Notes: generated from the sequence alone by a model not told the origin. A stretch of DNA of 64,000 nucleotides from Minisyncoccota bacterium (GCA_041661265.1 JBAZUT010000008.1:1134-65133); one strand, 5' to 3'. Positions 3,149 through 39,797 are shown, counted from the first letter of the stretch. A program made the numbers and translations.

Positions 3149-3787
3149 GGGGAAAAAAGCCTTGGTATCAGCCGGTGTGTGCGCCTGCCTGCTCGCCTCG
3201 CTGTCAGCATCCGGCGAAGCGGGCCGGAGGGTAGCCGTTATGGTTCGACCTGCCTTCGCCAATACTTCGACAAGGCAAGCAGGTTCACCATGACAAATAC
3301 TCACAGCGCTAATTAGTTTCCGTTGAAATAGCGGTAATTTCAGGTGTCTTTGCGAGGCTCATCAGAGCCGTGGCAATCCCTATTCTATGCAAATTATGCT
3401 TTATTATAAGAGTTTTATCGGCTTAGTTTTGGGATTGCTTCGTTGTTGTTACTCCTCGCAATGACGAAATTTATGGCTATTTCATCAGGAATTAATTAGG
3501 TTACTTCGGTACTATGCGAGAGCTTCGTCTTGTCTTTAATGACAAATTTAAACCTTGAAATTAAAGCCGGAATTTGTCCAATCTATCATAAATAACCGAG
3601 AAGCAGTTCTGACGGATCAGTGTGGACTATTCAGCATATAAGCCTGTTTCTTTCTTTTTGATTTTGTGTTATAATGAAGCCAGTTACGATGCGAGCGCGA
3701 AGGTGCGAAATTTTTTGAAGTGGAAGTTTTCAAAGACAAAAATAAAACCGTAATGTTCATTTCCGACCTAATTTATTTTATAATACT

Positions 3788-7892: not shown

Positions 7893-8344
7893 ACTGAAAA
7901 ATGAAAAGCTAAAAATGAAAAACGACAGAGAAAAATTTAAAAATGAATTTAAGGCGCGAATCTACAACTTCATATTGAATCTGATAAAATTTATCGACCA
8001 CTTACCTTCCGACAGAGCTACGGATATAATCGCCAAACAGCTCCTCAGAAGCGGCACAAGCATCGGCGCAAACTATATCGAAGCGCAAGCGGCAAGCTCA
8101 AAGAAGGACTTTACTAACTTTTTCCACTATTCCTTAAAATCGGCCAATGAAAGCAAGTTCTGGATCGCGATCTTAAGAGATAGCAAAAAGGCTGGAAAAG
8201 AAGAGGCTGAAGCTTTATTGAAAGAGCTTATAGAAATTTCAAACATACTGGGCTCAAGCATTATCACGCTGAAGAACAAAAGATAGTCCATCTTATATAT
8301 AATATTTTTTCGTTTTTCATTTTAAATTTTAAATTTGAAATATG
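7893..8344. repeat. Direct repeat copy 1 (~450 bp) carrying a four-helix-bundle gene, bounded by 17-bp terminal inverted repeats TAAAAATGAAAAACGA
   Basis: Near-identical to 9019..9480. TIRs at 7909-7925 and 8310-8326. The copy ends in the ATG (atgtcaa) of the downstream gene. Confidence 0.8.
7915..8286 (+). CDS. Four-helix-bundle protein (23S rRNA IVS protein / Avd-like family), copy A
   Basis: LLRSGTSIGANYIEAQAASSKKDF...SKFWIAILRD. 99% identical to 9047..9418. Confidence 0.7.
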   Translation: MKNDREKFKNEFKARIYNFILNLIKFIDHLPSDRATDIIAKQLLRSGTSIGANYIEAQAASSKKDFTNFFHYSLKSANESKFWIAILRDSKKAGKEEAEALLKELIEISNILGSSIITLKNKR

Positions 8345-9018: not shown

Positions 9019-9480
9019 TTACGTATTGAAAAATGAAAAGCTAAAAATGAAAAACGACAGAGAAAAATTTAAAAATGAATTTAAGGCGCGAATCTACAAC
9101 TTCATATTGAATCTGATAAAATTCATAGATAACCTGCCCTCCGACAGAGCTACGGATATAATCGCCAAACAGCTCCTCAGAAGCGGCACAAGCATCGGCG
9201 CAAACTATATCGAAGCACAAGCGGCAAGCTCAAAGAAGGACTTTACTAACTTTTTCCACTATTCCTTAAAATCGGCCAATGAAAGCAAGTTCTGGATCGC
9301 GATCTTAAGAGATAGCAAAAAGGCTGGAAAAGAAGAGGCTGAAGCTTTATTGAAAGAGCTTATAGAAATTTCAAACATACTGGGCTCAAGCATTATCACG
9401 CTGAAGAACAAAAGATAGTCCATCTTATATATAATATTTTTTCGTTTTTCATTTTAAATTTTAAATTTGAAATATGTCAA
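9019..9480. repeat. Direct repeat copy 2 (~450 bp) carrying a four-helix-bundle gene, TIR-bounded
   Basis: Near-identical to 7893..8344. TIRs at 9041-9057 and 9442-9458. Confidence 0.8.
9047..9418 (+). CDS. Four-helix-bundle protein (23S rRNA IVS protein / Avd-like family), copy B
   Basis: ORF 9026 uses a TTG start; the ATG at 9047 gives the same 123-aa protein as copy A (one H to N difference). Confidence 0.7.
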   Translation: MKNDREKFKNEFKARIYNFILNLIKFIDNLPSDRATDIIAKQLLRSGTSIGANYIEAQAASSKKDFTNFFHYSLKSANESKFWIAILRDSKKAGKEEAEALLKELIEISNILGSSIITLKNKR

Positions 9481-11333
9481 TTTTCAGCAGTTTGCTGCCA
9501 TCCGGAAATAAGGCAAAAGAAAATAATTCCGCTTCGCCGAAGAAAGGAACCGCAACAGGCGAATCGAGCGCTGTGATCGCTTCGGAGAGGATATACAAGC
9601 AGGGACTTACGACCGTAAAGGACATCATCGCTCCCGCCGCTTTCAGGATCGAAGCGGATTATGTGATGATAAACCGGAAAATGGCGGCGACGTTCTTCGT
9701 TTATGCCTATCCGAGATATTTGCAGACGAATTGGTTCTCCCCGATCGTCAATCTTGACGCGACATTCGACATTGCGATGTTCATCCATCCGCAGAGCAGC
9801 GCGGAGATATTGAGGCATCTTCTCAAGGTTGTAACGCAGATCCAGTCGCAGATCTCCATGAACGAGGAAAGAGGAATGGTCAGGGATCCGATCCTCGAGA
9901 CCGCATATCAGGACGTTGAGAATCTCCGAGATGACCTCCAGCAGGGTATCGAGCATTTTTTCCAGTTCGGGCTCTATATGACAATCTATGGCGATACGAA
10001 AGACGAACTGATGAAGGTTGAGACGCAGATAGAGGCGATCCTTGAGGCAAAGCTCATCTATGTGAAGCCGGCGATAATGCAAATGGAGGAGGCTTTCAAT
10101 TCGACGCTTCCGCTGGCGAGCGACAAGCTCATGATCGTGAACAATATGAACACTTCTCCCCTTTCCACGACTTTCCCGTTCGTTTCGAGCGATCTCACTT
10201 CGAATCAGGGCATTCTCTATGGGATAAACAGGCACAACAACAGTCTGGTGCTTTTTGACAGGTTTTCGATGGAAAATGCGAACATGGTCATTTTCGCAAA
10301 GTCCGGCGCAGGAAAAAGCTATACGGTCAAATTGGAAATACTGCGAAGTTTGATGGTTGAAACGGATGTCATTGTCATAGACCCTGAAGATGAATATAAG
10401 CATCTTTGCGAGACCGTCGGCGGCACTTTCATGAGGATCTCTCTTTCGGCGAAGCATCACATTAATCCTTTTGATCTTCCGACTGCGCTTGAGGATGAAG
10501 CTCCCGCGGACGTGCTTCGTACGGCGATCGCCAATGTCTCCGGACTTCTCAAGGTTATGCTCGGAAAGCTTTCCGCAGAGGAAGACTCGATCTTGGACAA
10601 GGCCATTGCGGAAACCTATGCCATAAAAGACATCACTCCGGAAGCGGAATTCGCGAAGCTTGAACCTCCGACAATGACAGATCTGCAGATGGTGCTTGAG
10701 AATATGAGCGGCGCAGAAAGCCTCTCGACCAGGATCAAGAAATACACTGAAGGAACTTTTGCAGGATTTTTGAACCACAGGACGAATGTCAGCGTGGACA
10801 AAGGCCTCGTCGTTTTCAACATCAGGGACATGGAAGAAGAGCTCCGTCCGGTCGCCATGTATCTCATTCTGCACTATATCTGGACGCTGATCAGGTCCGA
10901 AAGGAAAAGAAGGATGCTTGTGGTCGATGAGGCGTGGTGGATGATGCAGCACGAAGACGCGGCCTCATTTCTCTTTTCGATCGCAAAACGATGCAGGAAA
11001 TATTTCTTGGGCCTCACGACGATCACCCAGGACGTCACCGACTTCATGGGTTCGAGATATGGAAAGCCGATCGTCACCAATTCCTCGATCCAGCTTCTCC
11101 TGAAGCAGTCCCCTGCCGCCATCAAGGTCATCGTGGACACATTCTATCTTACGGATGAGGAGAAGTTCTTGCTATTGGAAAGCAATGTCGGAGAAGGGAT
11201 ATTCTTTGCAGGGGCAAAGCGCGCCGCGATCAAAGTGGTCGCTTCATATTCCGAGGATCAGATCATAACTTCCGATCCCGCCCAGCTCCTTGAGATCGAA
11301 AAGGCAAAGAAAGAACTGGAAGATGTGGCGTAA
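9474..11333 (+). CDS. virB4: VirB4/TraE/PrgJ-type type IV secretion ATPase
   Basis: Gram-positive-type N-terminus KDIIAPAAFRIEADYV...YPRYLQTNWFSPIVNLD. Walker A is FAKSGAGKSY, Walker B is MLVVDEAWWMM. Confidence 0.85.
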   Translation: MSIFSSLLPSGNKAKENNSASPKKGTATGESSAVIASERIYKQGLTTVKDIIAPAAFRIEADYVMINRKMAATFFVYAYPRYLQTNWFSPIVNLDATFDIAMFIHPQSSAEILRHLLKVVTQIQSQISMNEERGMVRDPILETAYQDVENLRDDLQQGIEHFFQFGLYMTIYGDTKDELMKVETQIEAILEAKLIYVKPAIMQMEEAFNSTLPLASDKLMIVNNMNTSPLSTTFPFVSSDLTSNQGILYGINRHNNSLVLFDRFSMENANMVIFAKSGAGKSYTVKLEILRSLMVETDVIVIDPEDEYKHLCETVGGTFMRISLSAKHHINPFDLPTALEDEAPADVLRTAIANVSGLLKVMLGKLSAEEDSILDKAIAETYAIKDITPEAEFAKLEPPTMTDLQMVLENMSGAESLSTRIKKYTEGTFAGFLNHRTNVSVDKGLVVFNIRDMEEELRPVAMYLILHYIWTLIRSERKRRMLVVDEAWWMMQHEDAASFLFSIAKRCRKYFLGLTTITQDVTDFMGSRYGKPIVTNSSIQLLLKQSPAAIKVIVDTFYLTDEEKFLLLESNVGEGIFFAGAKRAAIKVVASYSEDQIITSDPAQLLEIEKAKKELEDVA

Positions 11334-11396: not shown

Positions 11397-11437
11397 GTTG
11401 TCATCCTGATCCGCCGATTGGCGGAGAAGGATCCCGT
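11397..11437 (+). repeat. Box A repeat (gttgtcatcctgaTCCGCCgattGGCGGAgaaggatcccgt), upstream flank of a GIY-YIG mini-element
   Basis: Identical copy at 13184-13224. Contains a perfect 6-bp stem hairpin. Confidence 0.7.
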
Positions 11438-11503
11438 CAATTATTTCGTATCGCTATAAATTTCACAATTCATTGTTAATATAGGATTTCAAGATGATAC
11501 AAT

Positions 11504-11782
11504 ATGAATAGATATTTTGTATATATAGCTTCAAACAGCAGAAATACAGTTCTATATACCGGTATCACAAATGACATAAATCGAAGAATGTTTCAGCACA
11601 AAAACAAGCTGGTAAAAGGTTTCACAGAAAAATATAATGTTGACAAGTTAGTATATTGCGAAGAGTTTAATTCGCCAGGAGAAGCAATCTCCGCCGAAAA
11701 GAAAATTAAAGGATGGACAAGAAAGAAAAAGATAGATTTGATCAAAAGCATTAATCCCGAATTCGCAGACTTGTTGATATAA
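11504..11782 (+). CDS. GIY-YIG nuclease family protein (small UPF0213/YhbQ-like)
   Basis: YFVYIASNSRNTVLYTGITNDINRRMFQHKN...EEFNSPGEAISAEKKIKGWTRKKK is a canonical GIY...YTG motif. Confidence 0.8.
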   Translation: MNRYFVYIASNSRNTVLYTGITNDINRRMFQHKNKLVKGFTEKYNVDKLVYCEEFNSPGEAISAEKKIKGWTRKKKIDLIKSINPEFADLLI

Positions 11783-11784
11783 AA

Positions 11785-11825
11785 CCGGGATTCTTCACTC
11801 CGCTCCGCTGCATTCAGAATGACAT
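11785..11825 (+). repeat. Box B repeat (ccgggattcttcac.ccgctccgct.cattcagaatgacat), downstream flank of a GIY-YIG mini-element
   Basis: Copies at 13724-13764 (direct) and 13259-13303 (inverted). Confidence 0.7.
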
Positions 11826-13183: not shown

Positions 13184-13379
13184 GTTGTCATCCTGATCCG
13201 CCGATTGGCGGAGAAGGATCCCGTATTTAAATATGGATATCACGTTCAAAAAAAATGGACTCATTGTCATTCTGAACAGAGCGGAGCGAAGTGAAGAATC
13301 CCAGTAGAAAAAAATAGCGCCTTATGTAACGGGACTCTTCGACCCGCTTCGCCGAAGGTTGACAGCGAGGCGAGCGGGC
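13184..13379. repeat. Composite repeat block: box A (13184-13224), inverted box B (13259-13303), inverted box C (13341-13379)
   Basis: All three dispersed-repeat families co-occur here, upstream of the second GIY-YIG gene. Confidence 0.65.
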
Positions 13380-13442
13380 TCAGAGTGACAAGTATTGCAT
13401 AGAAGGGATATTTGCTTTTACAATACCTCAAGACAATATAGT

Positions 13443-13721
13443 ATGAATAAATACTATGTTTATATAGCTTCGAACAGCAGAAATACAGTTTTATATACCG
13501 GCATTACACATAACATAAATCGAAGAATGTTCGAACATAAAAACAAATTAGTTAAAGGTTTTACAGAAAAATATAATGTTGATAAATTAGTGTATTGTGA
13601 AGAATTTAATTCTCCGGGAGAAGCAATTGCCGCCGAAAAGAAAATTAAAGGATGGACAAGAAAGAAAAAGATAGATTTGATCGAAGGGATTAATCCCGAA
13701 TTTGCAGACTTGTTGATATAA
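13443..13721 (+). CDS. GIY-YIG nuclease family protein, second copy (~92% aa identity to 11504..11782)
   Basis: MNKYYVYIASNSRNTVLYTGITHNINRRMFEHKN... ORF 13395 has an upstream extension; the likely start is the ATG at 13443. Confidence 0.8.
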   Translation: MNKYYVYIASNSRNTVLYTGITHNINRRMFEHKNKLVKGFTEKYNVDKLVYCEEFNSPGEAIAAEKKIKGWTRKKKIDLIEGINPEFADLLI

Positions 13722-13852
13722 AACCGGGATTCTTCATTTCGCTTTGCTTCATTCAGAATGACATTATTGTTTAAGCAAATGAAAATTAGGGTTTCATTCA
13801 AAATCCAAAATTGGAAATTAAAAATTAACTTATAATATTAACATCTAAAACT

Positions 13853-14851
13853 ATGTTTATCAGAAAACGCACCTTGCTCCTGCTTCTCCTTGTTGCATCT
13901 GCCACATTTGCTTACCCTGCTTTTGCCCAATATACCCCAATGGTCAGGATTCCCGGGCTCACCGCCGCGGGAAGCATAAATCTTTCAATGTATCTGGTGG
14001 GATTATATAATTTTATGGTCAGTATTGTGGGAATAGTTGCTGTCATGATGATGATCGTGGGAGGCATGAGATATATAACTGCTGCGGGAAGTTCAACGGC
14101 GATTAGCGATGCAAAAGATATTATCTCAAATGCCGTAGCCGGTCTCGTTATTGCCATTTTTGCCTGGATCATTGTTGCCGCAATAAATCCCGACGTCTTG
14201 TTCATAAAGAAACCCGGATCGGGATTCAAAAATGCTTCATATTTATCTTGTACGAAGCAATATACGGCCGCGATATGCAAGTGCAATGATGACGTGGGTT
14301 TGGGAGTTTTTGCATCTCCGACCGCCTGCAATGATGCATGCAAAGCCGGAAATCATTGCGGCGGTTTGGTGAATAGTTGTATCAGGGATGGAGTGAATGA
14401 AACGACCAGTCCGAAATTTAATACAGCTCCGAATAACGGAAAATGTTTATGTGCTAATGGAGTGGATGTTGTGCCTATACCGCCAGCTACATGTCAAGCG
14501 ACTTGCGCTATAGCAAATTGTATAAAGGCTGATGCAAGAATTGGAAATACAGGAATTACAGGTTTTGTCTCAGGAGTGGTAGATCAAAAAAGGACAACTA
14601 TATACATAAAAAATCCTTGCACGGATTCTTTGGCATTTGATGCTTACAAAACATTTGCTGTAAATCCCTATACGTGCAGTTGGGATTTTGAAAGCGACGG
14701 CACACCTGACAATCCCTCGTGTTTTACAGGATTTTGTCCGGTAAGTGGCGTCTTTATCGCTGGAACTTATACAGCAACGCTTACAGTGACTGACTCTGTT
14801 ACTGGAGCAAGTTCTGCGGACACTGTTATTTATGAAGCAATATATCCATAA
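13853..14851 (+). CDS. VirB2/TrbC-like pilin core with a ~210-aa Cys-rich C-terminal extension (PKD-like tail)
   Basis: Signal peptide, then a pilin-like core (INLSMYLVGLYNFMVSIVGIVAVMMMIVGGMRYITAAGSS...AGLVIAIFAWIIVAAI). Downstream are at least 14 Cys residues and a TGFCPVSGVFIAGTYTATLTVTDSVTG segment. Confidence 0.5.
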   Translation: MFIRKRTLLLLLLVASATFAYPAFAQYTPMVRIPGLTAAGSINLSMYLVGLYNFMVSIVGIVAVMMMIVGGMRYITAAGSSTAISDAKDIISNAVAGLVIAIFAWIIVAAINPDVLFIKKPGSGFKNASYLSCTKQYTAAICKCNDDVGLGVFASPTACNDACKAGNHCGGLVNSCIRDGVNETTSPKFNTAPNNGKCLCANGVDVVPIPPATCQATCAIANCIKADARIGNTGITGFVSGVVDQKRTTIYIKNPCTDSLAFDAYKTFAVNPYTCSWDFESDGTPDNPSCFTGFCPVSGVFIAGTYTATLTVTDSVTGASSADTVIYEAIYP

Positions 14852-14985: not shown

Positions 14986-15501
14986 TTATTCCCAATTTAT
15001 TATTACGTGGTCGAATTTCAGCTCATTGCCGTCAGTGTTGTCAGTTTTTTCGTAGATTGCTACGATAGACGTTGTTTCGCCGGATGCGAATGCATATTCA
15101 ACTGGAGAGAACCCAGTTGTCTTTGTTGGGTTCTGGATATCATCCTTTGACTCAACTCCGTCAAAATTCCATCCAAGGAATTTGTATCCTGCAATGTCTG
15201 TTGCCGATACTTTGACAAGAGGCCTGCGATGTGCATCTATTGATACGGTCTTATCTTTCGTATCGATACCGTTTATAAATGCTTTTATTGCGTCCAAGCT
15301 GTTCAGGTCCTGTTTCTCATACGAGAAACCGACAAATGCGCCTTCGGCTGCTGTTTTGCTGTTTAATACAGTGGGCATGGATGTGGGATTTGTAAACGTC
15401 CCCAGCGCCGTTAGTACGGCCGCTGCTATGAGCGCTACGGCCACGGTGCCAATCATCCATGTCGGAATCACTATTCCTCTCTTACGTATTGTTTCGTTCA
15501 T
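14986..15501 (-). CDS. Hypothetical signal-anchored secreted protein
   Basis: N-terminal TM helix VIPTWMIGTVAVALIAAAVLTAL. RBS AAGGAGCGTGAAAAAAAATG resembles those of the neighbouring lipoprotein genes. Confidence 0.4.
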   Translation of the reverse strand: MNETIRKRGIVIPTWMIGTVAVALIAAAVLTALGTFTNPTSMPTVLNSKTAAEGAFVGFSYEKQDLNSLDAIKAFINGIDTKDKTVSIDAHRRPLVKVSATDIAGYKFLGWNFDGVESKDDIQNPTKTTGFSPVEYAFASGETTSIVAIYEKTDNTDGNELKFDHVIINWE

Positions 15502-15771
15502 TTTTTTTCACGCTCCTTGTGTTTTCTTTCTTTATCACCTCCTGTTTCCAGCAAGGTTTTTTAGCGGGTATGTAACAGTCTAAAGTCCTTAAAGTCTAAA
15601 GTTTCTAAAGCAAAGCTTTCGGCTTTATGGATATTTTGACTTTCGACTATTTTTATACCCTTCAAAAAACCATGCTGGATTTACTTGTTGTCGGATTTGT
15701 TCTGTGAACTGTAAATGAGCTAACTGGATATAATAGCATAAATATGACATTTGTCAATCCCCTTTATCCAC

Positions 15772-15890
15772 AGCGCAAGAGGTCTGCACCTCGTCTATGA
15801 GGTCAGTCCTCTGAAGCGCCCAGCATCGGATCTTTTTGATCCTTTGCAATCGGAGGACCGATTTCCTGCTTGGAGGTGCGGATTGCTTTG
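15772..15890. repeat. Degenerate copy of the ~270-nt structured dispersed repeat (compensatory stem changes versus the full copies)
   Basis: GAGGTCTGCACCTC here vs CAAGGTCTGCACCTTG, and GAGGTCAGTCCTC vs CAAGATCAGATCCTTG. Both stems are preserved. Confidence 0.5.
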
Positions 15891-16059
15891 TAATATTCCC
15901 AGATCGCACTTCTTTTGTATATAAAATTGTTAACGAACGACATTTTTCAGCAAAAGCTGAAACTCTCTTCTCTACCATCAAAATAGCAAGAAATCCACGT
16001 TGAGTCAATTTTTGCAGAGTTCGTATTGTGGACTTCCTGTGGAGAAGATGGGGAATAAA

Positions 16060-16095
16060 GATAAAAAAAGAGTATATGTTATACTCTTCAATTGC
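16060..16095 (-). terminator. Rho-independent terminator (GAAGAGTATA-aca-TATACTCTT plus T7) downstream of 16100..16594
   Basis: Read on the minus strand. Confidence 0.45.
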
Positions 16096-16099
16096 AATG

Positions 16100-16594
16100 C
16101 TATTTATATATCGTTGTTGAACTAAAAACAAATTCTGCCCTGTTTCCCGCGCTATCGATCGCACTTATTTTTGATATGCAGGATTCCCCGTTTGAAACCT
16201 TTTTGCAAACTTCATAAAGCGGATCTGTTTTTATCATCGTAAAGAGGGCCCAATCACCGTTTTTGAAAGGTGTTTCCGTCACTCCATCTCCATTATTGTC
16301 GTACAGATAAGTTGCAGGCGGATTTGGCACGATAGAGTCACTGAAGTCCAAGACGAAGGATTTATCTTCTTCCAGAACGATAGCATTTCCGAAATAATCT
16401 CTAGTCGCTAAGGTTCTCGGATTGCTCGTATTTATATTTACCTCTCCTATTTTTGGCTGGATGACAAATGTTTTAGCCGTCATGTCGGATGTTTTATTTG
16501 CCTCTTCTGCCGGGATGGCGCTTGATGCGTATCCTGAAAATGATGCAAATATAGCAATTAGAACTGCCATAATTACAATTGCTTTAAATCTCAT
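16100..16594 (-). CDS. Hypothetical secreted protein (signal peptide)
   Basis: MRFKAIVIMAVLIAIFASFSGYASSA. Shares a conserved promoter/leader (TTGACA-N17-TATGCT ... aaaaaggacgtgaaagaATG) with the lipoprotein paralogs. Confidence 0.45.
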   Translation of the reverse strand: MRFKAIVIMAVLIAIFASFSGYASSAIPAEEANKTSDMTAKTFVIQPKIGEVNINTSNPRTLATRDYFGNAIVLEEDKSFVLDFSDSIVPNPPATYLYDNNGDGVTETPFKNGDWALFTMIKTDPLYEVCKKVSNGESCISKISAIDSAGNRAEFVFSSTTIYK

Positions 16595-16758
16595 TCTTTC
16601 ACGTCCTTTTTGTTTTATATTTTAAGGATTGATTATTCTTTCCTTAATGTCATCAGCATAAATTGTTTTTCTAAATTTGTCAAAGGTTGATGATACGGGA
16701 TTTGTTAATAATGTTTAAAAATGTCCTAAAGTTAAAAAAATAGGGATTTATTATCCCT

Positions 16759-17397
16759 TTATTGATAGAACCTTATATTGATATTTACTCTATAGAGTTC
16801 ATCATTAGCGCTTTTGTCTGCCATCCAGACGGTGGATTTTCTCTGTGGGCCCTTCACTCCTTCTACAGAACCGCCTCTATTCCATTTGCCGCCATTTCCA
16901 GACTCAACTGTGAGTTTGACCACACCTTGCAGATCACGGAGATATGAATTAACTGTCAGTATCTTATTGTCTCCGGAAATTTCCGCTTTGAAATTATCCA
17001 GGACTAGATTGTCATCAACTGCAATTGCGATGTTTTGCAGTTTATTTTTTGGGACAGTAAAATAAACCTCCACTACACCATTGCTTCTGAAACTGGCATA
17101 TTTTTGAACATACGCTACATTATTTTCGTAGCTTCTATTGTTGTATGCACCGACCAGGGGCTCTTTTACGGGGAGGCCTTTGACAGTAATTCCGTTGAGA
17201 GTATTTCCTTCAATTTTTTTCGAATCATCTAAACTGTTGGAATCTGTGATTCCAGTATTTTCGGAAATTGGCTGTTTGATGGCCGTTTCTGCTACTTTCG
17301 GCGCTATTGTCTCCGGACCTTTGTCCGACACGCATCCCGAGATCAACAAAGCTCCCGCAAGCAGAAATACTGCCAATATTTTCAATTTTATTCTCAT
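16759..17397 (-). CDS. Lipoprotein, paralog 1 (variable surface lipoprotein)
   Basis: MRIKLKILAVFLLAGALLISGC has a lipobox. ORF 16759..17442 starts at an upstream TTG/ATG; the likely start is at 17397. Confidence 0.5.
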   Translation of the reverse strand: MRIKLKILAVFLLAGALLISGCVSDKGPETIAPKVAETAIKQPISENTGITDSNSLDDSKKIEGNTLNGITVKGLPVKEPLVGAYNNRSYENNVAYVQKYASFRSNGVVEVYFTVPKNKLQNIAIAVDDNLVLDNFKAEISGDNKILTVNSYLRDLQGVVKLTVESGNGGKWNRGGSVEGVKGPQRKSTVWMADKSANDELYRVNINIRFYQ

Positions 17398-17523
17398 TCT
17401 TTCACGTCCTTTTTGTTTTGTTTTCCATATTTCAAGGATCAATTTGTCTTATCCTCAATGCCACCAGCATAAAGTTTTTTTTGAGATTTGTCAAGAATTG
17501 AGGCATCTATTGTCCCATTACTA

Positions 17524-17797
17524 AAAAGTCCCCTCTCGAGAGGGGCAGGGGTGTGTGAGTTGGGAAGCGCGGCTAGGTCGCTTTGAGTTAATTTGATAAA
17601 CAAAAAAACACAAATCTCTCTGAGGTTCAAGGTCTGCACCTTGTCCACAAGGTCAGATCCTTGAAGAACCGGCGAAGACATCGAACAACTTCATTTATTA
17701 TCGGAGGATCCGACTTCTTTGAGGGGGTGCGGACCTCTTTTGTTCTCGGACTTCCCTGTTCCTTCCACACAAGAGGAAGAGGCCAGGTGGATTTGGA
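17524..17797. repeat. Structured dispersed repeat, copy 1 (~270 nt; begins with the perfect palindrome CCCCTCTCGAGAGGGG)
   Basis: Near-identical core to 20218-20490 and 21054-21262. Confidence 0.75.
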
Positions 17798-17818
17798 ATC
17801 AGGGCCCTCGGATCTCGA

Positions 17819-18661
17819 TCAGACCAGATATTTTTTCATTATTTCTTTGTAATTTTTGCAGAAATCAGTCACGAAAGATTGGTCGGGAAAGAAATTCTGA
17901 AGATCATATGCGAGCTTTCTTTCATCGACCTCCTTTTCGATTTTGTTTTTCAGGACTTGTTTCAGTTCATTCTCGTCTTTGATGGAGAAAGCCTTTTCAA
18001 GGACAGCAAAGTCAGGACTGATGCCTTTGCTGAGATACCAGAATAGGTCATAGAAGTCGCGTCCCTTTATGTCGATAACATTGTTTTTTCCCTTGAACCA
18101 TTTTCGTCCCAGTATCGCCATGATCTTTCCGGTCATCAGAAATTTTAGGGTGTAATTTTTGGCAAGAAAATTGAAGCCGAATGAAGAGACTGGGGAAAGC
18201 TCGGTTTCAAATACTTCGAATTGGCTGATCTCCGGCTCGATTTTGACATAGAGAAAATCGCTTTTTTCTCCATAAATAAGACCAAGATCTTTCAGGATCG
18301 GGAATTTGAGATAGAGCCTGTTTTTTCCCTGGACCCGGAAGGAAGGAACTATAAGGAAATTGTTTTCAAAATATGCAGAAAGTGCCGTGCCCATTTTTTC
18401 CAGATCCAATGTCCGGAAATCAGATTCTTCGAGGTCAAAGTCCAGGTCTTCGGAAAGTCGCGACAAGCCATAGCAAATGCGAAGGCACGATCCGCCGGTG
18501 AAGATGAAGTTTTTATATTCTTTGCTGTTATATATATAGCTCAGAACTGGAAATTGCAGGACCTCTTTAAGGAAGTTTGCGATCACAAAATCAGGAAGCC
18601 CGGCTCTCTTTTTCTCCTGCACCAGGGTTTTCATGGTCTCTTTAAGCATAATATTGTTCAT
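17819..18661 (-). CDS. abiEii: AbiEii/AbiGii family nucleotidyltransferase toxin (type IV toxin-antitoxin / abortive infection)
   Basis: FIFTGGSCLRICYGLSRLSEDLDFDL matches the DUF1814 GGtaL...R.SeDlDf motif. Confidence 0.7.
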   Translation of the reverse strand: MNNIMLKETMKTLVQEKKRAGLPDFVIANFLKEVLQFPVLSYIYNSKEYKNFIFTGGSCLRICYGLSRLSEDLDFDLEESDFRTLDLEKMGTALSAYFENNFLIVPSFRVQGKNRLYLKFPILKDLGLIYGEKSDFLYVKIEPEISQFEVFETELSPVSSFGFNFLAKNYTLKFLMTGKIMAILGRKWFKGKNNVIDIKGRDFYDLFWYLSKGISPDFAVLEKAFSIKDENELKQVLKNKIEKEVDERKLAYDLQNFFPDQSFVTDFCKNYKEIMKKYLV

Positions 18662-19280
18662 TAATGAGTTTAAATAGTGTATTCATGCGTTTGTTGTTGC
18701 ATATTTTTATGTATTCTTCCATTTTTTTGATGTCGGAAGCGGAAATATTTTCCCAGTTGAGGCGCAGATCTTCCAGCGCTTCTCGGTTTATTTCACGCTT
18801 GCTCAAAAAGCGAAGATAGAGAAAATCAAACAGAGCTTTTGCTTTTTCGGCTTCAAGAACGGGCGCGCCTTGAAAATATTTGACGGAATATCCGCAAAAA
18901 AGCTTCGGGCTTATTGAGTAATAGCGGAAGCTTCCGAGCTTGTTCACAATTTCCCTTCCTGTTTTTACGGTCATTGAAGTCAGGGCGTTGGCCGGTTCGC
19001 TCAGGATCTGATATTTGGAAAGCGTATATTCCATTGAGAGATAGGATGGCATCACCATTTGATTGGCGATGTATTCGAGATAGGAGTTCTTGTCTCCTTC
19101 CATGCGGAATCGGTCGCTTAGCACGTATAGGCCGTTTTTCAGGCCAATGAGTTTCCCGTTTTTAAGCCAATATTTGATGTTGGCATTCAGCGATTCAGGG
19201 TCGCTTTCAAGCGATCGAAGCGTATTTTTGCTGAAAACAAGGAACTTTTGGCTTATTTTCTCAAAATCATTATAGTTCAT
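18642..19280 (-). CDS. abiEi: Putative AbiEi-like antitoxin / transcriptional regulator
   Basis: Lies immediately upstream of and overlaps the AbiEii gene by 20 nt. Size is about 210 aa. Assigned mainly by operon context. Confidence 0.45.
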   Translation of the reverse strand: MNYNDFEKISQKFLVFSKNTLRSLESDPESLNANIKYWLKNGKLIGLKNGLYVLSDRFRMEGDKNSYLEYIANQMVMPSYLSMEYTLSKYQILSEPANALTSMTVKTGREIVNKLGSFRYYSISPKLFCGYSVKYFQGAPVLEAEKAKALFDFLYLRFLSKREINREALEDLRLNWENISASDIKKMEEYIKICNNKRMNTLFKLINEQYYA

Positions 19281-19442
19281 TATATATGTTTATGATATAG
19301 TATAATAATTATACCAAAACGTGAACGAATGTCAAGAGCTTGGAATTCTGTTAAGTTGAAATTTTGGTGAGTGCACTCACCTAATTCTTGCGAAGTGGCT
19401 GGAGTCGTAAAGATTAAAACTGTCATAAAAAAGAGACGGCAT

Positions 19443-20012
19443 TTAAGTCGTCTTTATTAGTTTTTCCGGATGTCTTGCAGTTGGATTTGGTTGAGCGGGC
19501 GGAGCATTAACTTTTGTAATTTCAACGCTCCATTCCCATTCTTTTATGGCATCGATCCCTGGGCAATTCCCTCCGCCTGCTTCTGTTATACATTTTTCCA
19601 TCATAACTGTTTTAGAACTCTTTTTGTTTCTTAGTTTAAACTGATATTCCAGATAGAACCTGGCATTATCTGGTTTCAACTCAGAAACAACAGTAATAGC
19701 TTTGCCAGCGTATACTTTGATTTTAAGATCTCCGAGATCTAATGTTTGTGGTTGCGTCGAGTCTTCAAAGAAATCATACCAGTTATCTGACTTAAAAACT
19801 TCTATTTTTGATTGCGCATCGCTGTTCTTTGGCGTTTCAGTAACTCCCGGACCGACGTTTCCGGAGTTGCCCGAACTTCCCGAACTGCCAGGACTTGCCT
19901 CACTAATTGCTACTTCTGTTACTTTTGGCGATATTGTTCCCGGGTCTTTATCCGACACGCATCCCGAGATCAACAAAGCTCCCGCAAGCAGAAATATTGC
20001 CAATATTTTCAT
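19443..20012 (-). CDS. Lipoprotein, paralog 2 (Gly/Ser-rich linker, divergent mature domain)
   Basis: MKILAIFLLAGALLISGC has a lipobox. Same upstream leader as 16759 paralog. Contains a GSSGSSGNSGN linker. Confidence 0.5.
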   Translation of the reverse strand: MKILAIFLLAGALLISGCVSDKDPGTISPKVTEVAISEASPGSSGSSGNSGNVGPGVTETPKNSDAQSKIEVFKSDNWYDFFEDSTQPQTLDLGDLKIKVYAGKAITVVSELKPDNARFYLEYQFKLRNKKSSKTVMMEKCITEAGGGNCPGIDAIKEWEWSVEITKVNAPPAQPNPTARHPEKLIKTT

Positions 20013-20217
20013 TCTTATTTTCACTTTTTCACATCCTTTTTGTTTTGTTTTCCATATTTTAAGGATCAATTTGTCTTATCCTCAATGCGAACATCATAAA
20101 GTGTTTTCTGGGTTTTGCAAACACTATCGGCTGGAAAGTGGAGGGTAGAATGTGGAAAGTGGCAAATTGTTGAAGAATCTTTTGATATTGCTCCATGACC
20201 ATATTGTTCTATTATTA

Positions 20218-20490
20218 ATAATCCCCTCTTGAGAGGGGCAGGGGTGTGTGAGTTGGGAAGCGCGGCTAGGTCGCTTTGAGTTAATTTGATAAACAAAAGA
20301 ACGCAAATCTCTCTCAGGTTCAAGGTCTGCACCTTGTCCACAAGATCAGATCCTTGAAGAACCGGCGAAGACATCGAACAACTTCATTAATTATCGGAGG
20401 ATCCGACCTCCTGCTGGAGGTGCGGACCTCCTTCGTCCCCGGATCTCCCCGCTCTTTCTGCACAAGATGAGGAGACCTGGTGGATTTGAG
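20218..20490. repeat. Structured dispersed repeat, copy 2
   Basis: Sequence identity to copy 1 and copy 3. Confidence 0.75.
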
Positions 20491-20513
20491 AATAAACTGT
20501 ATTGCAATAACTT

Positions 20514-20984
20514 TTGAGTTGTATTAGAATGAAGATAATAAATGAAATATTCTTACTTTCAAAACAGGCCATGAATATCGATGAAAACAAATTAAAAGAA
20601 ATACTAAAGGAGCAAAGTGATGATTTCAAGCGGCATGTGAGCGTGATTTCGGAAGATTTTCATTCGAGCGTGAAGCTGATCTCTGAACAATATAGTTCAA
20701 TCAAAGAAACGCTGGATCGTCATACTGAGATACTAGATTCTCACTCCGAAACACTTGAATCGCATGGTAGAATACTTGAATCGCATACCAAAACACTCGA
20801 ATCTCACACAAGAACTCTTGATTTTCACACTGAGATGATAGGCTCACTGAAGGAAGATGTGGAAATCATCAAAACTGATGTGGAGTTTGTGAAAAACTCT
20901 CTCAAGAAAAAGGTTGATGCTGAAGAGTTTTCGGTTTTGGAAAGAAGAGTCGCTGCACTGGAGTCAAAGGTCAGGGCGAGATAG
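20514..20984 (+). CDS. Coiled-coil protein with tandem heptad repeats (TEILDSH/SETLESH/GRILESH/TKTLESH/TRTLDFH)
   Basis: ORF with degenerate 7-aa repeats. The likely true start is at 20571 (MNIDENK). Confidence 0.4.
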   Translation: MSCIRMKIINEIFLLSKQAMNIDENKLKEILKEQSDDFKRHVSVISEDFHSSVKLISEQYSSIKETLDRHTEILDSHSETLESHGRILESHTKTLESHTRTLDFHTEMIGSLKEDVEIIKTDVEFVKNSLKKKVDAEEFSVLERRVAALESKVRAR

Positions 20985-21053
20985 AGTTTATCGTTTTAGA
21001 AATATGCCACACTTCCGGTTGAGGGGTGGTTTTTTGTTTTGTTGTGACATCTC

Positions 21054-21262
21054 ATCCCTCCTTTATGAAAAGGAGGGTTAGGGTGGATTTGAATTAATCC
21101 GGTAAGCAAAAGAACGCAAATCTCTCTCAGGTTCAAGGTCTGCACCTTGTCCACAAGATCAGATCCTTGAAGAACCGGCGAAGACATCGAACAACTTCAT
21201 TAATTATCGGAGGATCCGATCTCCTGCTGGAGGTGCGGACCTCCTTCGTCCTCGGACCCCTC
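21054..21262. repeat. Structured dispersed repeat, copy 3 (alternative head hairpin CCCTCCTTT-atgaaa-AGGAGGG)
   Basis: Core identical to copies 1 and 2. The head hairpin differs in sequence but keeps its structure. Confidence 0.7.
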
Positions 21263-21380
21263 CATCCACTTTGTCCAAGACAGACAGACTATGTGGGCTT
21301 GGATCGATCTGAAGATAAGGGAAATTGACACTCGTTTTTTGTGGAGTATAATAGAAATATAATTTGAATAGGTTATTGCA

Positions 21381-21626
21381 ATGCTTTCGGACAAAGATGT
21401 TCAAAAACTGGTAAAAGTTTTCGCGACTCGCGATGAGGTGATTTCAAAGAGCGAATTGGGTGAATTAAAACGCGATTTCGGCAATCTTCAATTGTCTATT
21501 GACTCTTATGCCAAGAGGGCTGATGCTTATTTTCAGGAAATGGCGATGTTTTCACATAAGATCGATCGTCAGGAAAGATGGATCCAGGAAATTGCGAAAA
21601 AAATCGGAATGAAATTAGATTATTGA
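21381..21626 (+). CDS. Small hypothetical coiled-coil protein downstream of repeat copy 3
   Basis: 81-aa ORF, no recognisable motif. Confidence 0.3.
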   Translation: MLSDKDVQKLVKVFATRDEVISKSELGELKRDFGNLQLSIDSYAKRADAYFQEMAMFSHKIDRQERWIQEIAKKIGMKLDY

Positions 21627-21726: not shown

Positions 21727-22029
21727 TTATTGTTTCTTGTAAGCTCTTTCTATTTCGCTTTCCCTTATCAATTGAAATCCCAGATTCATGAGCCTGGTTC
21801 CGACCGAGAGCATCAAAATGCCATAAACGAGCAAGCCGTTCAGGTTGAGCAGTTCGGGAGGGATTTGCATTCCTTGGGCGACCTGGGCGCCATTTTTAAA
21901 CAGTGGCGCGAGGTTTTGCTTCCCGCTATACACGTCATTTACGTATAATCCCATCATTATCACGATCACAAGACCTATGCCGATGAATGTCCATCCGGTT
22001 TTTTTCTTCAGGGAAACTGTGTTAACCAT
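21727..22029 (-). CDS. Small hypothetical membrane protein (2 TM)
   Basis: GWTFIGIGLVIVIMMGLYV and LLVYGILMLSVG. Confidence 0.3.
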   Translation of the reverse strand: MVNTVSLKKKTGWTFIGIGLVIVIMMGLYVNDVYSGKQNLAPLFKNGAQVAQGMQIPPELLNLNGLLVYGILMLSVGTRLMNLGFQLIRESEIERAYKKQ

Positions 22030-22319
22030 TTCTATACCTCCGATCTGAAAATCCTGAATAAAGAATAGTATATTATGGGATAAAAGTAAATGAGCCGGGA
22101 TATTGACAAAAACTATATTATATGCTATGCTTTTATGTTTGCTGTGCTAATTAAACAGCAAATATTCAGGTTCGTTGAAAAATAATCTTTCGGTTAAAAT
22201 AGCGCTAAATGGTTTTTGGCGTTGTTTCAACCGAAGGATTCACAAGAATTCCATCGGTCCGATAGTATACGAACAAGAATAAAAGTAATGAATAGTTAAG
22301 GAGAAAAAGAAGAAAACAG

Positions 22320-24867: not shown

Positions 24868-24986
24868 AGGCAGTGAACGCACTGTCCTTTTTTTATGGAT
24901 AAAAAGTCCCCTCTCGAGAGGGGCAGGGGTGTGTGGGTTGGGAAGCGAGGCCAGACCTTGGAAATAACGGAAAATCATTGGCAGAG

Positions 24987-25176: not shown

Positions 25177-25266
25177 CGAAACCAGTACGTTAAACCCTGT
25201 CTTCCGGCCCGCTTCGCCGAAGGCTGACAGCGAGGCGAGCATGCAGGCGCTCTGTCACCTCTCCGG
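25177..25266 (-). pseudogene. Disrupted duplicate of the tRNA-Ser 5' half with a ~50-nt box C repeat inserted in the D-loop region
   Basis: GGAGAGGTGACAGAGC [insert] GGTTTAACGTACTGGTTTCG, then divergence. A box-A-like hairpin TCCGCCGAAGGCGGA lies adjacent at 25141-25172. Confidence 0.55.
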
Positions 25267-39782: not shown

Positions 39783-39797
39783 CGCAGGGCCTGCGTT

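Follow-up and report, generated by a model that had tools for sequence, protein, structure and literature searches.

Genes A, B and C of the locus considered here code for small, putatively exported proteins whose mature parts show no significant pairwise similarity (against shuffles and by BLAST), and all three are preceded by a 5′ region of one kind. How do genes of unrelated content come to be headed by a common 5′ end, and what might this end do for them? The locus is chromosomal and belongs to an uncultivated ultrasmall bacterium of Candidatus Paceibacterota (CPR/Patescibacteria). The window, that is, the whole stretch of DNA analysed, is 64,000 nucleotides long, and all positions are counted from its first letter. 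The explanation that we consider probable is a portable 5′ module for expression and export, which recombination has spread and made uniform within a strain-variable island next to a T4SS pilin gene.

The locus and its genes

Three genes for small, putative exported proteins and a gene D, in the order D, A, B, C and all on the minus strand, lie in one island; they are given below together with their neighbours.

3788-6100: TrbL/VirB6-like gene, T4SS-like cluster
9474-11333: VirB4/TraG-type ATPase gene, T4SS-like cluster
13853..14851, plus strand: T4SS pilin-like protein (PF18895) with PKD-like C-terminus, one edge of the island
14986..15501, minus strand: gene D, 171-aa protein with an N-terminal membrane anchor
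16100..16594, minus strand: gene A, predicted 164-aa secreted protein; signal peptide MRFKAIVIMAVLIAIFASFSGYA, then SS
16759..17397, minus strand: gene B, predicted 212-aa lipoprotein precursor; signal peptide MRIKLKILAVFLLAGALLISG, then C; linker VSDKGPETIAPKVAETAIK
17819-18661, minus strand: AbiEii
18642-19280, minus strand: AbiEi
19443..20024, minus strand: gene C, predicted lipoprotein precursor, ~193 aa
21727..22029, minus strand: conserved 100-aa membrane-protein gene, upstream edge of the island

The reading frames of the original prediction are all present. For gene C, the starts of B and of the genes in the related loci L002, L003 and L020 are homologous to the GTG at 20024, which is a likelier start than the ATG at 20012; from the annotated TTG at 20069 the frame would cross the leader. 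AbiEi and AbiEii form a toxin-antitoxin/abortive-infection pair (17819..19280) with its own consensus promoter (19335-19308), placed between C and B within the segment flanked by two copies of repeat plus module. The pilin-like gene is the final one of the T4SS-like cluster and is convergent with D, A, B and C. Three independent assemblies (NCBI MAG; ENA ERZ27249449, L001/L018; JGI Ga0172379, L010/L011) agree on the arrangement at 99.9-100% identity, so an assembly artefact is ruled out. A comparison between strains, proposed with the original prediction, was made with about five related strain-level loci, mostly contigs of 1-3 kb. Gene content at the locus varies among these close strains, and a module-bearing lipoprotein gene directly follows the 100-aa membrane-protein gene in L003, L020/L021 and L002. 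The locus is best read as a strain-variable island between the 100-aa membrane-protein gene and the T4SS-like pilin gene.

A common 5′ module

A, B and C have in common an upstream block of ~100 nt, reaching from about the −35 element through the start codon (nhmmer E 1e-21 to 5e-31); in it, a promoter of sigma-70 type is followed by a small hairpin, an A-rich spacer and a strong Shine-Dalgarno sequence (SD), ACAAAAAGGAYGTGAAARARTG.

16595..16689, minus strand: module copy A; −35 TTGACA 16683-16678, 17-nt spacer, −10 TATGCT 16660-16655; leader with hairpin UUAAGGA...UCCUUAA (~16620-16646), A-rich spacer and SD AAAGGA within 16598-16610
17398..17500, minus strand: module copy B; −35 TTGACA 17494-17489, −10 TATGCT 17471-17466; leader with hairpin UUGAGGAU...AUCCUUGA (~17430-17458), A-rich spacer and SD
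20025..20126, minus strand: module copy C; −35 TTTGCA 20121-20116, −10 TATGAT 20098-20093; hairpin ~20057-20085; SD AAAGGAUGUGAAAAAGUG

The promoter TTGACA-N17-TATGCT had been claimed for all three genes; it is exact at A and at B, but at C it reads TTTGCA-N17-TATGAT, with 9/12 consensus positions and a degenerate −35. As to the claim of a common RBS, AAAAGGACGTGAAAGAATG stands ahead of A, B and C within three mismatches, all three of which are used by copy C, where GTG (20024), not the ATG at 20012, occupies the homologous start position. At ≤3 mismatches this string occurs three times in 64 kb (0.06 expected), and the hairpin motif AGGA-N8-16-ATCCTTRAAA also three times (0.03 expected), always ahead of A, B and C. 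Copies A and B are identical over 28 nt spanning RBS and start. Gene D, which had been regarded as related, was rejected as a member: its resemblance is limited to an SD-like 12-mer, the RBS string has no match there at ≤3 mismatches, and the motif is not significantly enriched. The module copies are genuine, do not arise by chance and can be separated from the dispersed repeat described below. From the identity of promoter and leader sequences, A, B and C may be co-regulated.

The signal peptide, also proposed to be common, is so in B and C, which share a lipobox signal peptide (in B the lipobox was read by inspection) and about 18 linker residues; the signal peptidase II pattern …LLAGA[LI]L[IL]SGC is found in the lipoprotein genes only. 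Gene A has a signal peptide of its own type, without the lipobox Cys and resembling the signal peptidase I type, and beyond the non-coding module its likeness to B and C ends after two or three codons. The two lipoproteins had been described as alike and then completely divergent. Their mature parts are indeed unrelated, but the similarity extends ~15-18 codons past ...GCVSDK and fades gradually with no sharp breakpoint, nucleotide identity being 98% in signal-peptide codons 6-24, 73% in codons 25-40 and ~45-49%, the random level, beyond. The mature domains gave no family matches and no confident structure, and their sequences hold no long tandem repeats. That of B is an orphan, beta-rich in a low-confidence model, and gene C has no homologues among 5.8e9 proteins beyond its own entry and a signal-peptide match to B. 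The mature A domain is kept in related strains and recurs in a more distant relative, beside a T4SS pilin gene; this homologue, P0007, is 55% identical from FVIQPKIGE onward, with an unrelated N-terminus and 5′ UTR. From the lipobox or signal peptide, the proteins may be located at the surface, and a role in host, episymbiont or phage interaction would be speculation.

The leader hairpin

The leader hairpin of the original prediction is also predicted here for every copy, with an energy of −5.7 to −6.6 kcal/mol, a stem of 7-8 bp and a loop of variable length (11-13 nt), and it leaves the SD 89-96% unpaired in the predicted ensemble. In an alignment of 8 instances, 95% of the cells are paired. 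Covariation is weak, with one compensatory change that is equalled by 111/500 shuffles, and the energy of the copy B hairpin is unexceptional (z = −0.6). Because the loop length varies and G-U pairs occur, the hairpin is read more readily as RNA than as a protein operator. Extended upstream, the frames of gene A and of L003 meet stop codons; the leader is therefore non-coding.

The dispersed structured repeat

Structured repeats had been noted immediately upstream of two of the genes, and a full copy does lie directly 5′ of B and of C. The copies and the duplicated block that they open are as follows.

15780..15908, minus strand: diverged partial copy, between A and D
17525..17798, minus strand: copy 1, ~95-nt imperfect hairpin core, upstream of B
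17250..17798, minus strand: B side of a large B/C duplicated block (repeat, terminator, module, signal peptide, linker); partner 19877-20491
20218..20491, minus strand: copy 2, upstream of C; terminator-like hairpin 20238-20223
21033..21304, minus strand: copy 3, different tail; neither module nor minus-strand gene after it

The tail of copy 1 forms an intrinsic-terminator-like hairpin (17545-17530) ~30 nt ahead of the −35 of B, and compared with copy B, module copy C has ~70 nt extra between repeat terminator and −35. Identity within the duplicated block is 83-100% (30-nt windows) and random after ~codon 40. The partial copy is followed by a promoter-like TTGACA-N16-TATTAT (15757-15730) and a ~230-nt leader to D. 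Among nine distinct module instances (L020 and L021, being identical, were counted once), the repeat is directly upstream in 4/9, from three strains, and from this adjacency it may have a part in spreading the module. The upstream similarity does not stem solely from the dispersed repeat, since gene A (in the window and in L017), L003-B and L017-gene4 have the module but lack the repeat, and the repeat at 21033-21304 occurs without the module; the 100-aa gene of L002 has the promoter-hairpin part only, also without the repeat.

Module and gene bodies in related strains

In five other strain-level loci (two of them identical in sequence) the module stands ahead of other coding sequences. B-type bodies are present in the window, L003 and L017 and, diverged, in L020/L021; beside C-type and A-type bodies there are a P0004-type (L002), L017 gene4 (MKIKSIMAM...) and the 100-aa membrane-protein gene, which has the module in L002 alone. 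The proposal of a cassette-like 5′ part thus stands: one unit of promoter, hairpin and RBS, in part with signal peptide, precedes unrelated coding sequences here and in related strains. Moreover, orthologous mature domains bear differing 5′ ends, e.g., L003-B carries the RBS, GTG start and linker start of the C type.

Module copies within one genome are closer to each other than orthologues across strains. Against its paralogue C, gene B is 98% identical in signal-peptide codons, 88% in the RBS, 91% in the hairpin and ~49% in the mature part, whereas against its L003 orthologue the mature part is 91% identical, the signal peptide 79% and the RBS 69%. Over 21 signal-peptide codons, synonymous differences number 0 for B vs C and 4-6 for B or C vs other strains; the longest identical run is 46 nt. 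"Diversifying", if taken as fast sequence evolution, is not an apt description, as mature A and B evolve between strains under purifying selection (dN/dS 0.12-0.21, dS 0.3-0.5), with 0.13-0.15 for A vs L017 and 0.12-0.13 for B vs L003 and L017, comparable to a neighbouring housekeeping-type membrane protein. Since the mature bodies evolve slowly, B and C have not diverged from one gene since their 5′ ends were last identical. The variation of the locus is gene turnover plus exchange of the 5′ module, not hypermutation.

How the module might work and spread

The mosaic patterns of identity indicate recombination or exchange of the module. It is proposed that the module is nested, with (1) promoter and hairpin, (2) A-rich spacer and SD and (3), in lipoprotein genes only, signal peptide and linker, and that each exported-protein gene is driven by its own copy, the common promoter resulting in similar transcription of all module genes. 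With the transcription start where the promoter suggests it, the hairpin would be at the extreme 5′ end of the transcript and, by analogy with the ompA leader, might serve as an mRNA-stabilising cap, while the open A-rich leader and strong SD would allow efficient translation and the signal peptide would direct the products to the outer membrane face of a monoderm cell. Homologous recombination or gene conversion between module copies would homogenise them, move the whole or part of the module ahead of different coding sequences and insert or delete the genes in between.

Alternative explanations

It is conceivable, but unlikely, that the common 5′ end is a by-product of a mobile MITE- or Correia-like repeat (~190-275 nt, structured) with an outward-facing promoter, which inserts upstream of unrelated genes and carries along promoter and leader, in B/C also the first ~40 codons. 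The B/C duplicated block begins at the 5′ edge of the repeat and continues to ~codon 40, the repeat is again directly 5′ of the module in L020/L021 and L002, and even the diverged partial copy precedes a promoter-like TTGACA site. However, this explanation must account for the instances, listed above, of module without repeat and of repeat without module, and for junctions that differ from case to case: a terminator tail with 30 nt after it, such a tail and 30 nt with ~70 nt inserted, ~60 nt of different sequence, or a repeat cut off inside its core. Neither terminal inverted repeats nor target duplications nor a transposase could be identified for the repeat, a search of the viral-contig collection gave zero copies, and a spurious repeat-encoded ORF searched against 1.84 billion protein representatives matched only itself. 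Still less probable is tandem duplication of one gene, after which the 5′ part remained constrained and the mature parts of A, B and C drifted, with no recombination. The genes lie side by side in one orientation and are similar in size, B/C identity fades gradually across the linker, constraint is common in signal peptides and regulatory regions, and the beta-rich fold of the B model (low confidence) might also be that of A and C. Such drift agrees poorly with the synonymous differences, none for B vs C and several vs other strains, and with orthologues whose 5′ modules have diverged further than their mature parts; at the mature dN/dS observed, total loss of similarity needs far longer than the 5′ identity permits. 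The C-type 5′ end on L003-B and the unrelated 5′ end on the A-type body of P0007 also speak against it.

Phase or antigenic variation of the Mycoplasma vsp/vpma type, in which the 5′ regions would be sites for a site-specific recombinase switching the expressed lipoprotein gene, we regard as very improbable. As in vpma/vsp (PMC2268961), a conserved 5′ UTR and signal peptide precede unrelated mature lipoproteins, the window includes a gene for a tyrosine recombinase (31925-32860), and short-read contigs break at module copies. But the three copies are all in direct orientation, each with its own promoter and none silent or inverted; the recombinase gene is ~12 kb off, next to a tRNA, and its product resembles an ordinary XerC/D-type enzyme. 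The arrangement is the same in the three assemblies, long tandem repeats are missing from the mature regions, and the spacer of copy B has only a short A8 tract, unchanged in JGI contig L011. A separate alternative concerns the hairpin, which, with a rather low probability, is a regulatory switch or operator and not a passive 5′ stabiliser, i.e., a DNA palindrome bound by a repressor or an RNA switch in which the 3′ arm (UCCUU) sequesters the SD once a factor has bound the 5′ arm (AGGA). Every copy has an inverted repeat AGGA(U)...(A)UCCU just after its −10 hexamer, and in A, B and C, forcing the 5′ arm open lets the 3′ arm pair with the SD (−3.4 to −4.6 kcal/mol). The covariation of the hairpin is not strong enough to establish a role that is structural only. 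On the other hand, half-site spacing differs by 1 nt and G-U replaces A-U, both unusual in a protein operator. A candidate regulator was not identified, and the alternative pairing is weak and may be a trivial outcome of SD-like and anti-SD-like sequence.

Comparison with known systems

The portable 5′ module has partial counterparts in several bacteria. The Correia elements of Neisseria are small dispersed repeats bearing promoters; here, too, a structured intergenic repeat recurs immediately 5′ of envelope-protein gene promoters, but the promoter is outside the repeat, junctions are variable, the module also exists without it, and neither terminal inverted repeats nor target duplications were identified. 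In the E. coli ompA leader, a 5′-terminal stem-loop stabilises the mRNA. The present leader resembles it in a short hairpin predicted a few nt from the probable 5′ end, with an unstructured leader and a strong SD after it, and, as the analogy is drawn, in a place ahead of what would be abundant envelope-protein genes; it differs in a weak hairpin of about −6 kcal/mol, with SD-like and anti-SD-like arms, and in a start that is an inferred one.

The tandem lipoprotein-like cluster lpl in the Staphylococcus aureus genomic island nuSa-alpha is likewise a cluster of lipoprotein genes within an island, in which recombination at a conserved segment shuffles the variable parts, so that evolutionary unit and ORF do not coincide (PMC2568036). 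However, the lpl recombination site is central in homologous ORFs, and here it would be the 5′ non-coding module and signal peptide, with non-homologous bodies. The vpma genes of Mycoplasma agalactiae and vsp genes of M. bovis have conserved 5′ UTR and signal-peptide regions with no significant homology beyond (PMC2268961), a design shared by the genes described here. Their system needs the adjacent recombinase Xer1, a single active promoter, DNA inversion and repeat-built mature proteins, whereas here there is a promoter per gene, direct orientation, no adjacent recombinase and mature regions without tandem repeats.

In the erp (ospE/ospF/elp) genes of Borrelia burgdorferi, the upstream homology box (UHB) comprises conserved promoter, operator, leader peptide and first mature residues, and the remainders of the ORFs have independent origins, with frequent recombination (PMC10016077). 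The likeness is in the common promoter, leader, signal peptide and ~18 residues, in the unrelated bodies and in the mosaic identity. The present genes have no sequence homology to erp and are tandem chromosomal copies next to a T4SS-like cluster, whereas the erp copies occupy allelic sites on several cp32 prophage plasmids. The promoter-hairpin part is also found ahead of a secreted gene that is not for a lipoprotein and, in a single strain, ahead of a membrane-protein gene. Erp proteins have been demonstrated to be co-expressed and exposed at the surface; here both are predicted from the sequence. The locus is best read as a new instance of the kind known from Borrelia erp/UHB and Mycoplasma vsp/vpma lipoproteins.

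Locus and genomic setting

The window derives from an 83.6-kb contig of a Candidatus Paceibacterota (CPR/Patescibacteria) MAG. After the pilin gene of a T4SS-like cluster, and convergent with it, the minus strand holds gene D, gene A, gene B, an AbiEi/AbiEii pair and gene C, in this order; past C come two small plus-strand coiled-coil genes and then a conserved gene for a 100-aa membrane protein (the 100-aa gene).

3788-6100, plus strand, TrbL/VirB6-like protein of the T4SS-like cluster
9474-11333, plus strand, VirB4/TraG-type ATPase of the T4SS-like cluster
13853-14851, plus strand, T4SS-pilin-like protein of the T4SS-like cluster
14986-15501, minus strand, gene D
16100-16594, minus strand, gene A
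16759-17397, minus strand, gene B (locus tag WC788_06270)
17819-19280, minus strand, AbiEi/AbiEii pair
19443-20024, minus strand, gene C (locus tag WC788_06285)
20514-20984, plus strand, small coiled-coil gene
21381-21626, plus strand, small coiled-coil gene
21727-22029, 100-aa membrane-protein gene

The open reading frames of A, B and C, coding for small exported proteins, are present as originally predicted. The pair placed between C and B consists of an AbiEi antitoxin and an AbiEii nucleotidyltransferase (abortive-infection toxin–antitoxin; PADLOC E-values 1.1e-42 and 5.2e-35, respectively; Pfam AbiEii 2.3e-19), with a 20-nt gene overlap and a perfect consensus promoter (19335-19308). The same arrangement occurs at 99.9-100% identity in ENA ERZ27249449 (contigs L001, L018) and JGI Ga0172379 (contigs L010, L011).

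The promoter–leader module

Alignment of the regions upstream of A, B and C reveals a single conserved block of ~100 nt, which opens slightly ahead of the -35 hexamer and runs up to the start codon. Its ribosome-binding site (RBS) string is found at 3 sites in 64 kb (up to 3 mismatches allowed; 0.06 expected), all three preceding A, B and C, and its hairpin motif occurs 3 times in the window (0.03 expected). An HMM built from the three copies recovers them with E-values of 1e-21 to 5e-31; scanning the window with it gave no further convincing copy, and a weak match at 50259-50322 (E = 0.003), which sits within a coding region, was dismissed. When copies from related strains are included, the 8 instances have a mean column identity of 81% (nhmmer E 1e-16 to 5e-31). 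The promoter TTGACA-N17-TATGCT had been proposed for all three genes; it is exact for A and B, but C carries TTTGCA-N17-TATGAT. The RBS copy of C has 3 mismatches, and C has GTG (20024), its likely start, where A and B have ATG, GTG being also found in the relatives on contigs L003 and L020. Gene D, originally counted as a fourth member, has only a Shine–Dalgarno (SD)-like 12-mer in common with the others, which is not significant, and falls outside the set. In databases, the start is placed at an upstream TTG for C (20069, NCBI) and for B (17442, JGI), so that the proteins begin MILEIWKTKQKG... and MILKIWKTKQKG... and include the leader as coding sequence. Both starts are probably erroneous, because the same frame is closed by stops in gene A and in L003.

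The small hairpin is the minimum-free-energy feature in every leader (-5.7 to -6.6 kcal/mol), the SD is predicted to be 89-96% unpaired, and the remaining leader is A-rich. Over the 8 instances, pairing holds in 95% of cells; a single compensatory change is seen, G-U alternates with A-U, and the loop length varies. Covariation over these 8 instances was not significant against a shuffle control, and the alignment lends modest support to an RNA structure. No Rfam 15 family was found for the leader hairpin or for the dispersed repeat described below: at the gathering threshold the matches are two tRNAs only, and at E <= 5 nothing relevant to either was found within 15400-21500. In contigs of species-representative genomes, among which this lineage was not found, the hairpin-plus-RBS pattern gave 0 matches and the RBS pattern gave chance matches in Firmicutes only. 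Scanning of metagenome contigs returned the same-strain contigs L010 and L011 and chance matches, and scans of viral contigs gave 0 matches for the hairpin and 0 for the repeat core.

The hexamers and their 17-nt spacing match a sigma-70-type promoter. If transcription starts 6-8 nt past the -10 hexamer, the 7-8-bp hairpin would lie within a few nt of the 5' end of the transcript. Stem-loops at the 5' end of mRNA, e.g., in the ompA leader, protect it from 5'-end-dependent decay. By this analogy, the hairpin probably protects the mRNA from decay at its 5' end. It may, alternatively, be a regulatory switch or an operator. This reading is retained because the 3' arm (UCCUU) is able to pair with the SD, a latent alternative predicted to form when the 5' arm is blocked.

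Signal peptides and mature domains

Lipoboxes were called by inspecting translations for a positively charged n-region, a hydrophobic h-region and [LVI][ASTVI][GAS]C with Cys at residues ~15-35. Gene B reads MRIKLKILAVFLLAGALLISG-C22 and gene C reads (V)KIRMKILAIFLLAGALLISG-C22, and the same motif is carried by the related proteins P0002 and P0004 and by the lipoprotein of L020. In line with the prediction that B and C are lipoproteins, both have a common classical lipobox signal peptide (…LLAGALLISG-C), followed by ~18 further shared residues. At the nucleotide level, B and C agree to 98% over codons 6-24 of the signal peptide and to 73% over codons 25-40; further on, identity drops to the random level. 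Gene A was placed in the same set, and this is correct for the non-coding module and the first 2-3 codons, but A has its own signal peptide without a lipobox Cys; it reads MRFKAIVIMAVLIAIFASFSGYASSAIP..., has no Cys in the first 129 residues, and its product resembles a secreted protein of the signal peptidase I type.

Smith-Waterman alignments were made for all pairs of mature parts (A, B, C, D and P0004) and judged against 300 shuffles. Mature B and C are unrelated, as proposed, their comparison being no better than shuffles; the sole pair above shuffles among the ten is A with C, which match over a short low-complexity stretch (z = 3.7, 3/300 shuffles). Pfam, NCBIfam and PADLOC contain no family for A, B, C or D, the InlB B-repeat match of D (E = 0.037) being sub-threshold. 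In a collection of 5.8 billion proteins, B has one orthologue (P0002, 89%) and two matches restricted to the signal peptide (C and P0004), C retrieves nothing besides itself and, through the signal peptide, B, and A matches P0006 (87%) and P0007 (55%). The AlphaFold2 models are poor: that of A is unusable (pLDDT 39), and that of B (pLDDT 55) is beta-rich, with nothing below E = 1e-3 in a Foldseek search of the PDB (best TM-score 0.33-0.35). Between strains, mature A and B have a dN/dS of 0.12-0.21 at dS 0.3-0.5, similar to the neighbouring 100-aa gene (dN/dS 0.05-0.14). The low dN/dS indicates that these bodies are real, constrained and slowly evolving proteins.

The dispersed repeat

A separate structured intergenic element, the dispersed repeat, lies upstream of B and C, and the similarity of the leaders could have been caused by it alone.

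17525-17798, minus-strand sense, full copy
20218-20491, minus-strand sense, full copy
21033-21304, minus-strand sense, full copy
15780-15908, minus-strand sense, diverged partial copy
L020 1178-1365, L021 1144-1331 and L002 1143-1249, copies in other strains, adjoining the promoter module on its 5' side

Gene A has the module in the absence of the repeat, and the third full copy of the repeat (21033-21304) has no module downstream. The similarity of the modules is thus not reducible to the repeat, as the original prediction required. The two copies that precede B and C end in a terminator-like hairpin, whose distance to the -35 hexamer is ~30 nt for B and, because of an insert, ~130 nt for C. 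B and C belong to a larger duplicated block of ~550-610 bp, which extends from the repeat to about codon 40. The terminator-bearing tail of these two copies (…CTTCCCAACTCACACACCCCTGCCCCTCTCGAGAGGGGACTTTTT; 17525-17585 and 20218-20278) is a 93-95% copy of 24904-24962, a segment directly 3' of tRNA-Ser(CGA), which suggests that the genome reuses a terminator segment besides the promoter module.

The core of the repeat is an imperfect hairpin of ~95 nt with compensatory changes in 6/37 predicted pairs. The repeat also carries spurious ORFs (MSSPVLQGSDLVDKVQTLNLREICV...), annotated by gene callers; one of them, of 80 aa, matched itself only, plus low-complexity noise, among 1.84 billion protein representatives. 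The repeat may be an RNA gene, a regulatory platform or a mobile element. A copy also lies directly upstream of each of the two small coiled-coil genes, in plus-strand sense. The gene for the 156-aa coiled-coil protein contains a tandem repeat of 21 nt x 3.5 (20749-20821), giving heptad-like HSETLES repeats.

Related strains and probable recombination

Six short contigs with related loci were recovered, representing about five related strains. In L003 (Logan SRR29366193), the module and a B orthologue come straight after the 100-aa gene, and repeat, gene C and AbiE are all absent. L017 (Logan SRR22315506) has the order B, A with its module, and a fourth gene, which agrees with B/C at 92% in promoter and hairpin and differs in RBS and protein (MKIKSIMAM...). 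In L002 (Minisyncoccia MAG GCA_049304815.1), the 100-aa gene, a partial repeat, the module and the lipoprotein P0004 follow each other; P0004 has the B/C signal peptide on an unrelated body, and the module contains a ~150-nt insertion between hairpin and RBS, which includes a small GC-rich palindromic element. The 100-aa gene of L002 has itself a variant of the promoter and hairpin (657-735; TTGACA-N17-TATCTT, hairpin CAAGGA...UCCUUG), whereas a different upstream region is common to its orthologues in the window (where it lies at 22030-22230), L019 and L020. L020 and L021 (ENA ERZ27228609; JGI 3300009091) have the order 100-aa gene, repeat, module and a lipoprotein with the same signal peptide, a different post-cysteine sequence and a distantly B-like body (z = 5.4). 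In the more distant relative L015/L016, an A homologue is convergent with the T4SS pilin gene of a syntenic T4SS cluster, and its N-terminus and 5' UTR are unrelated, with no module. Taken together, one module precedes at least 5 different bodies, and homologous bodies have different 5' ends.

The segments of these genes differ in their relationships. B and its paralogue C are identical at 98% in signal-peptide codons, 88% around the RBS, 91% in the hairpin and ~49% in the mature part, whereas B and its L003 orthologue reach 91% in the mature part, 79% in the signal peptide and 69% around the RBS. Within 21 signal-peptide codons, there are 0 synonymous differences between B and C and 4-6 between either of them and other strains; the longest identical run of B and C is 46 nt. 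B is a mosaic, with 28 nt around the RBS identical to A and a hairpin of C-type, and in the B orthologue of L003 the RBS, GTG start and linker start are all of C-type. The incongruent segment identities and the synonymous identity, in a small number of sequences, indicate recombination between members. As the bodies of B and C evolve slowly, they could not have diverged beyond recognition since their 5' ends were last identical. The simplest account would be that module copies recombine with one another, by gene conversion or homologous recombination, the breakpoints lying at differing places. Such variable breakpoints would explain the nested sharing, in which promoter and hairpin are shared most widely, the RBS less and the signal peptide least. 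Two repeat-plus-module copies bracket mature C and AbiE, and recombination between them would produce single-gene arrangements as in L003 and L020. The original observation largely holds, but the proposed cassette-like, diversifying nature of the set has to be divided: the 5' end is cassette-like, but there is no fast sequence evolution (dN/dS 0.12-0.21), and the diversity consists of gene turnover and module exchange.

Other repeats and paralogues in the window

The GC-rich palindromic mini-element (…TGTCACCCTGAGCCTGCTCGCC…GGCGAAGCAGGTCGAAGGGTAG…) located at 1335-1480 of L002, within the lipoprotein leader insertion, is also found in the window at 13334-13390, 3187-3234 and 25205-25244, and at 11397-11437, which equals 13184-13224. 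One of the window copies precedes a GIY-YIG gene. Two small GIY-YIG-type genes (11489-11788 and 13428-13727), 88% identical, flank a 323-aa membrane/PT-TG-like gene of the T4SS region, and L015 has an IS200-type Y1 transposase at the syntenic position instead. Inside the T4SS-like cluster, a 300-nt repeat of 97% identity (7895-8194 and 9027-9326) covers the starts of two small paralogues (123 and 130 aa) flanking a TraC-like gene. Three tandem paralogous GT-C/PMT_2-type glycosyltransferase genes occupy 38085-43210 (plus strand); 300 nt are 100% identical between two of them (39841-40140 and 41559-41858), which suggests recent gene conversion. Another tandem paralogue cluster (58919-60112, minus strand) consists of 3-4 small membrane-protein genes (110-131 aa) with nucleotide repeats of 62-83%.

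Significance

Patescibacteria live attached to other microbes, and to our knowledge almost nothing is known about the expression or variation of their surface proteins. The locus is an example of recombination reshuffling 5' regulatory and export modules among orphan exported proteins beside a T4SS-like cluster, with strain-level gene turnover, the AbiE defence pair included, within a few kb. The T4SS-like system is essential for epibiotic growth in Saccharibacteria (PMC12857230). A far-reaching proposal, which we consider improbable, is that the structured ~190-nt repeat and the module form a dedicated recombination platform by which an obligate episymbiont swaps, gains and loses ectodomains of small surface lipoproteins beside its essential T4SS/pilus locus, the hairpin doubling as a translational switch. 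If so, it would mean population-level variation of the surface (host range or phage receptor) in Patescibacteria. The native, putatively strong promoter with its leader and lipoprotein export signal could also serve as an expression/secretion cassette for emerging CPR genetics.

Comparison with known systems

The alternation of structured repeats with small orphan genes and a toxin–antitoxin pair led to an integron array being considered. Such an array has an adjacent IntI integrase with attI, and attC sites (RYYYAAC/GTTRRRY cores) at the 3' ends of its cassettes. This explanation was rejected by inspection, since no integrase adjoins the array; no attC core (GTTRRRY/RYYYAAC) was seen when the repeat core was inspected, the genes have promoters of their own, and one gene in between lies on the opposite strand. 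The only tyrosine recombinase in the window (31925-32860, plus strand) is XerC/D-like and probably a housekeeping enzyme; its gene adjoins tRNA-Leu(TAG) (33042-33124), ~12 kb from the lipoprotein locus. In the Mycoplasma vpma/vsp loci, 5' UTRs and signal peptides are likewise conserved and the bodies unrelated (PMC2268961), but these loci need an adjacent recombinase, inversions and a single promoter, which were looked for and not found at the A–C locus. Inversion of the Vsp/Vpma type was rejected because the module copies all lie on the minus strand, each has its own promoter, the recombinase is distant and independent assemblies are identical. Nor do the coding regions of A, B and C contain a Vsp-like tandem array, a 2-copy 15-mer being all that was found by TRF. 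The A8 tract in the copy B spacer is identical in JGI contig L011, and phase variation through it received no support.

A full-text literature search found no CPR precedent for such a module, and among publications on the T4SS loci of Patescibacteria, a recent study and a review describe none (PMC12102498, PMC12857230). The lpl cluster of S. aureus consists of tandem lipoprotein paralogues, which are shuffled by recombination at a conserved segment (PMC2568036). Of the known kinds, the closest is Borrelia erp/UHB, in which promoter/operator DNA, leader peptide and first mature residues are conserved, and the remainder of the ORF is of independent origin, with frequent recombination (PMC10016077). 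As in erp, a promoter-containing upstream non-coding box is conserved in all members, and residues 1 to ~41, i.e., the leader and first mature residues, are common to B, C, P0004 and L003. The likeness is one of architecture, not of homology. The principle is not new, being already known from Borrelia erp/UHB and Mycoplasma vsp/vpma; the locus is a further instance of this evolutionary pattern, new in phylum and in genomic context.
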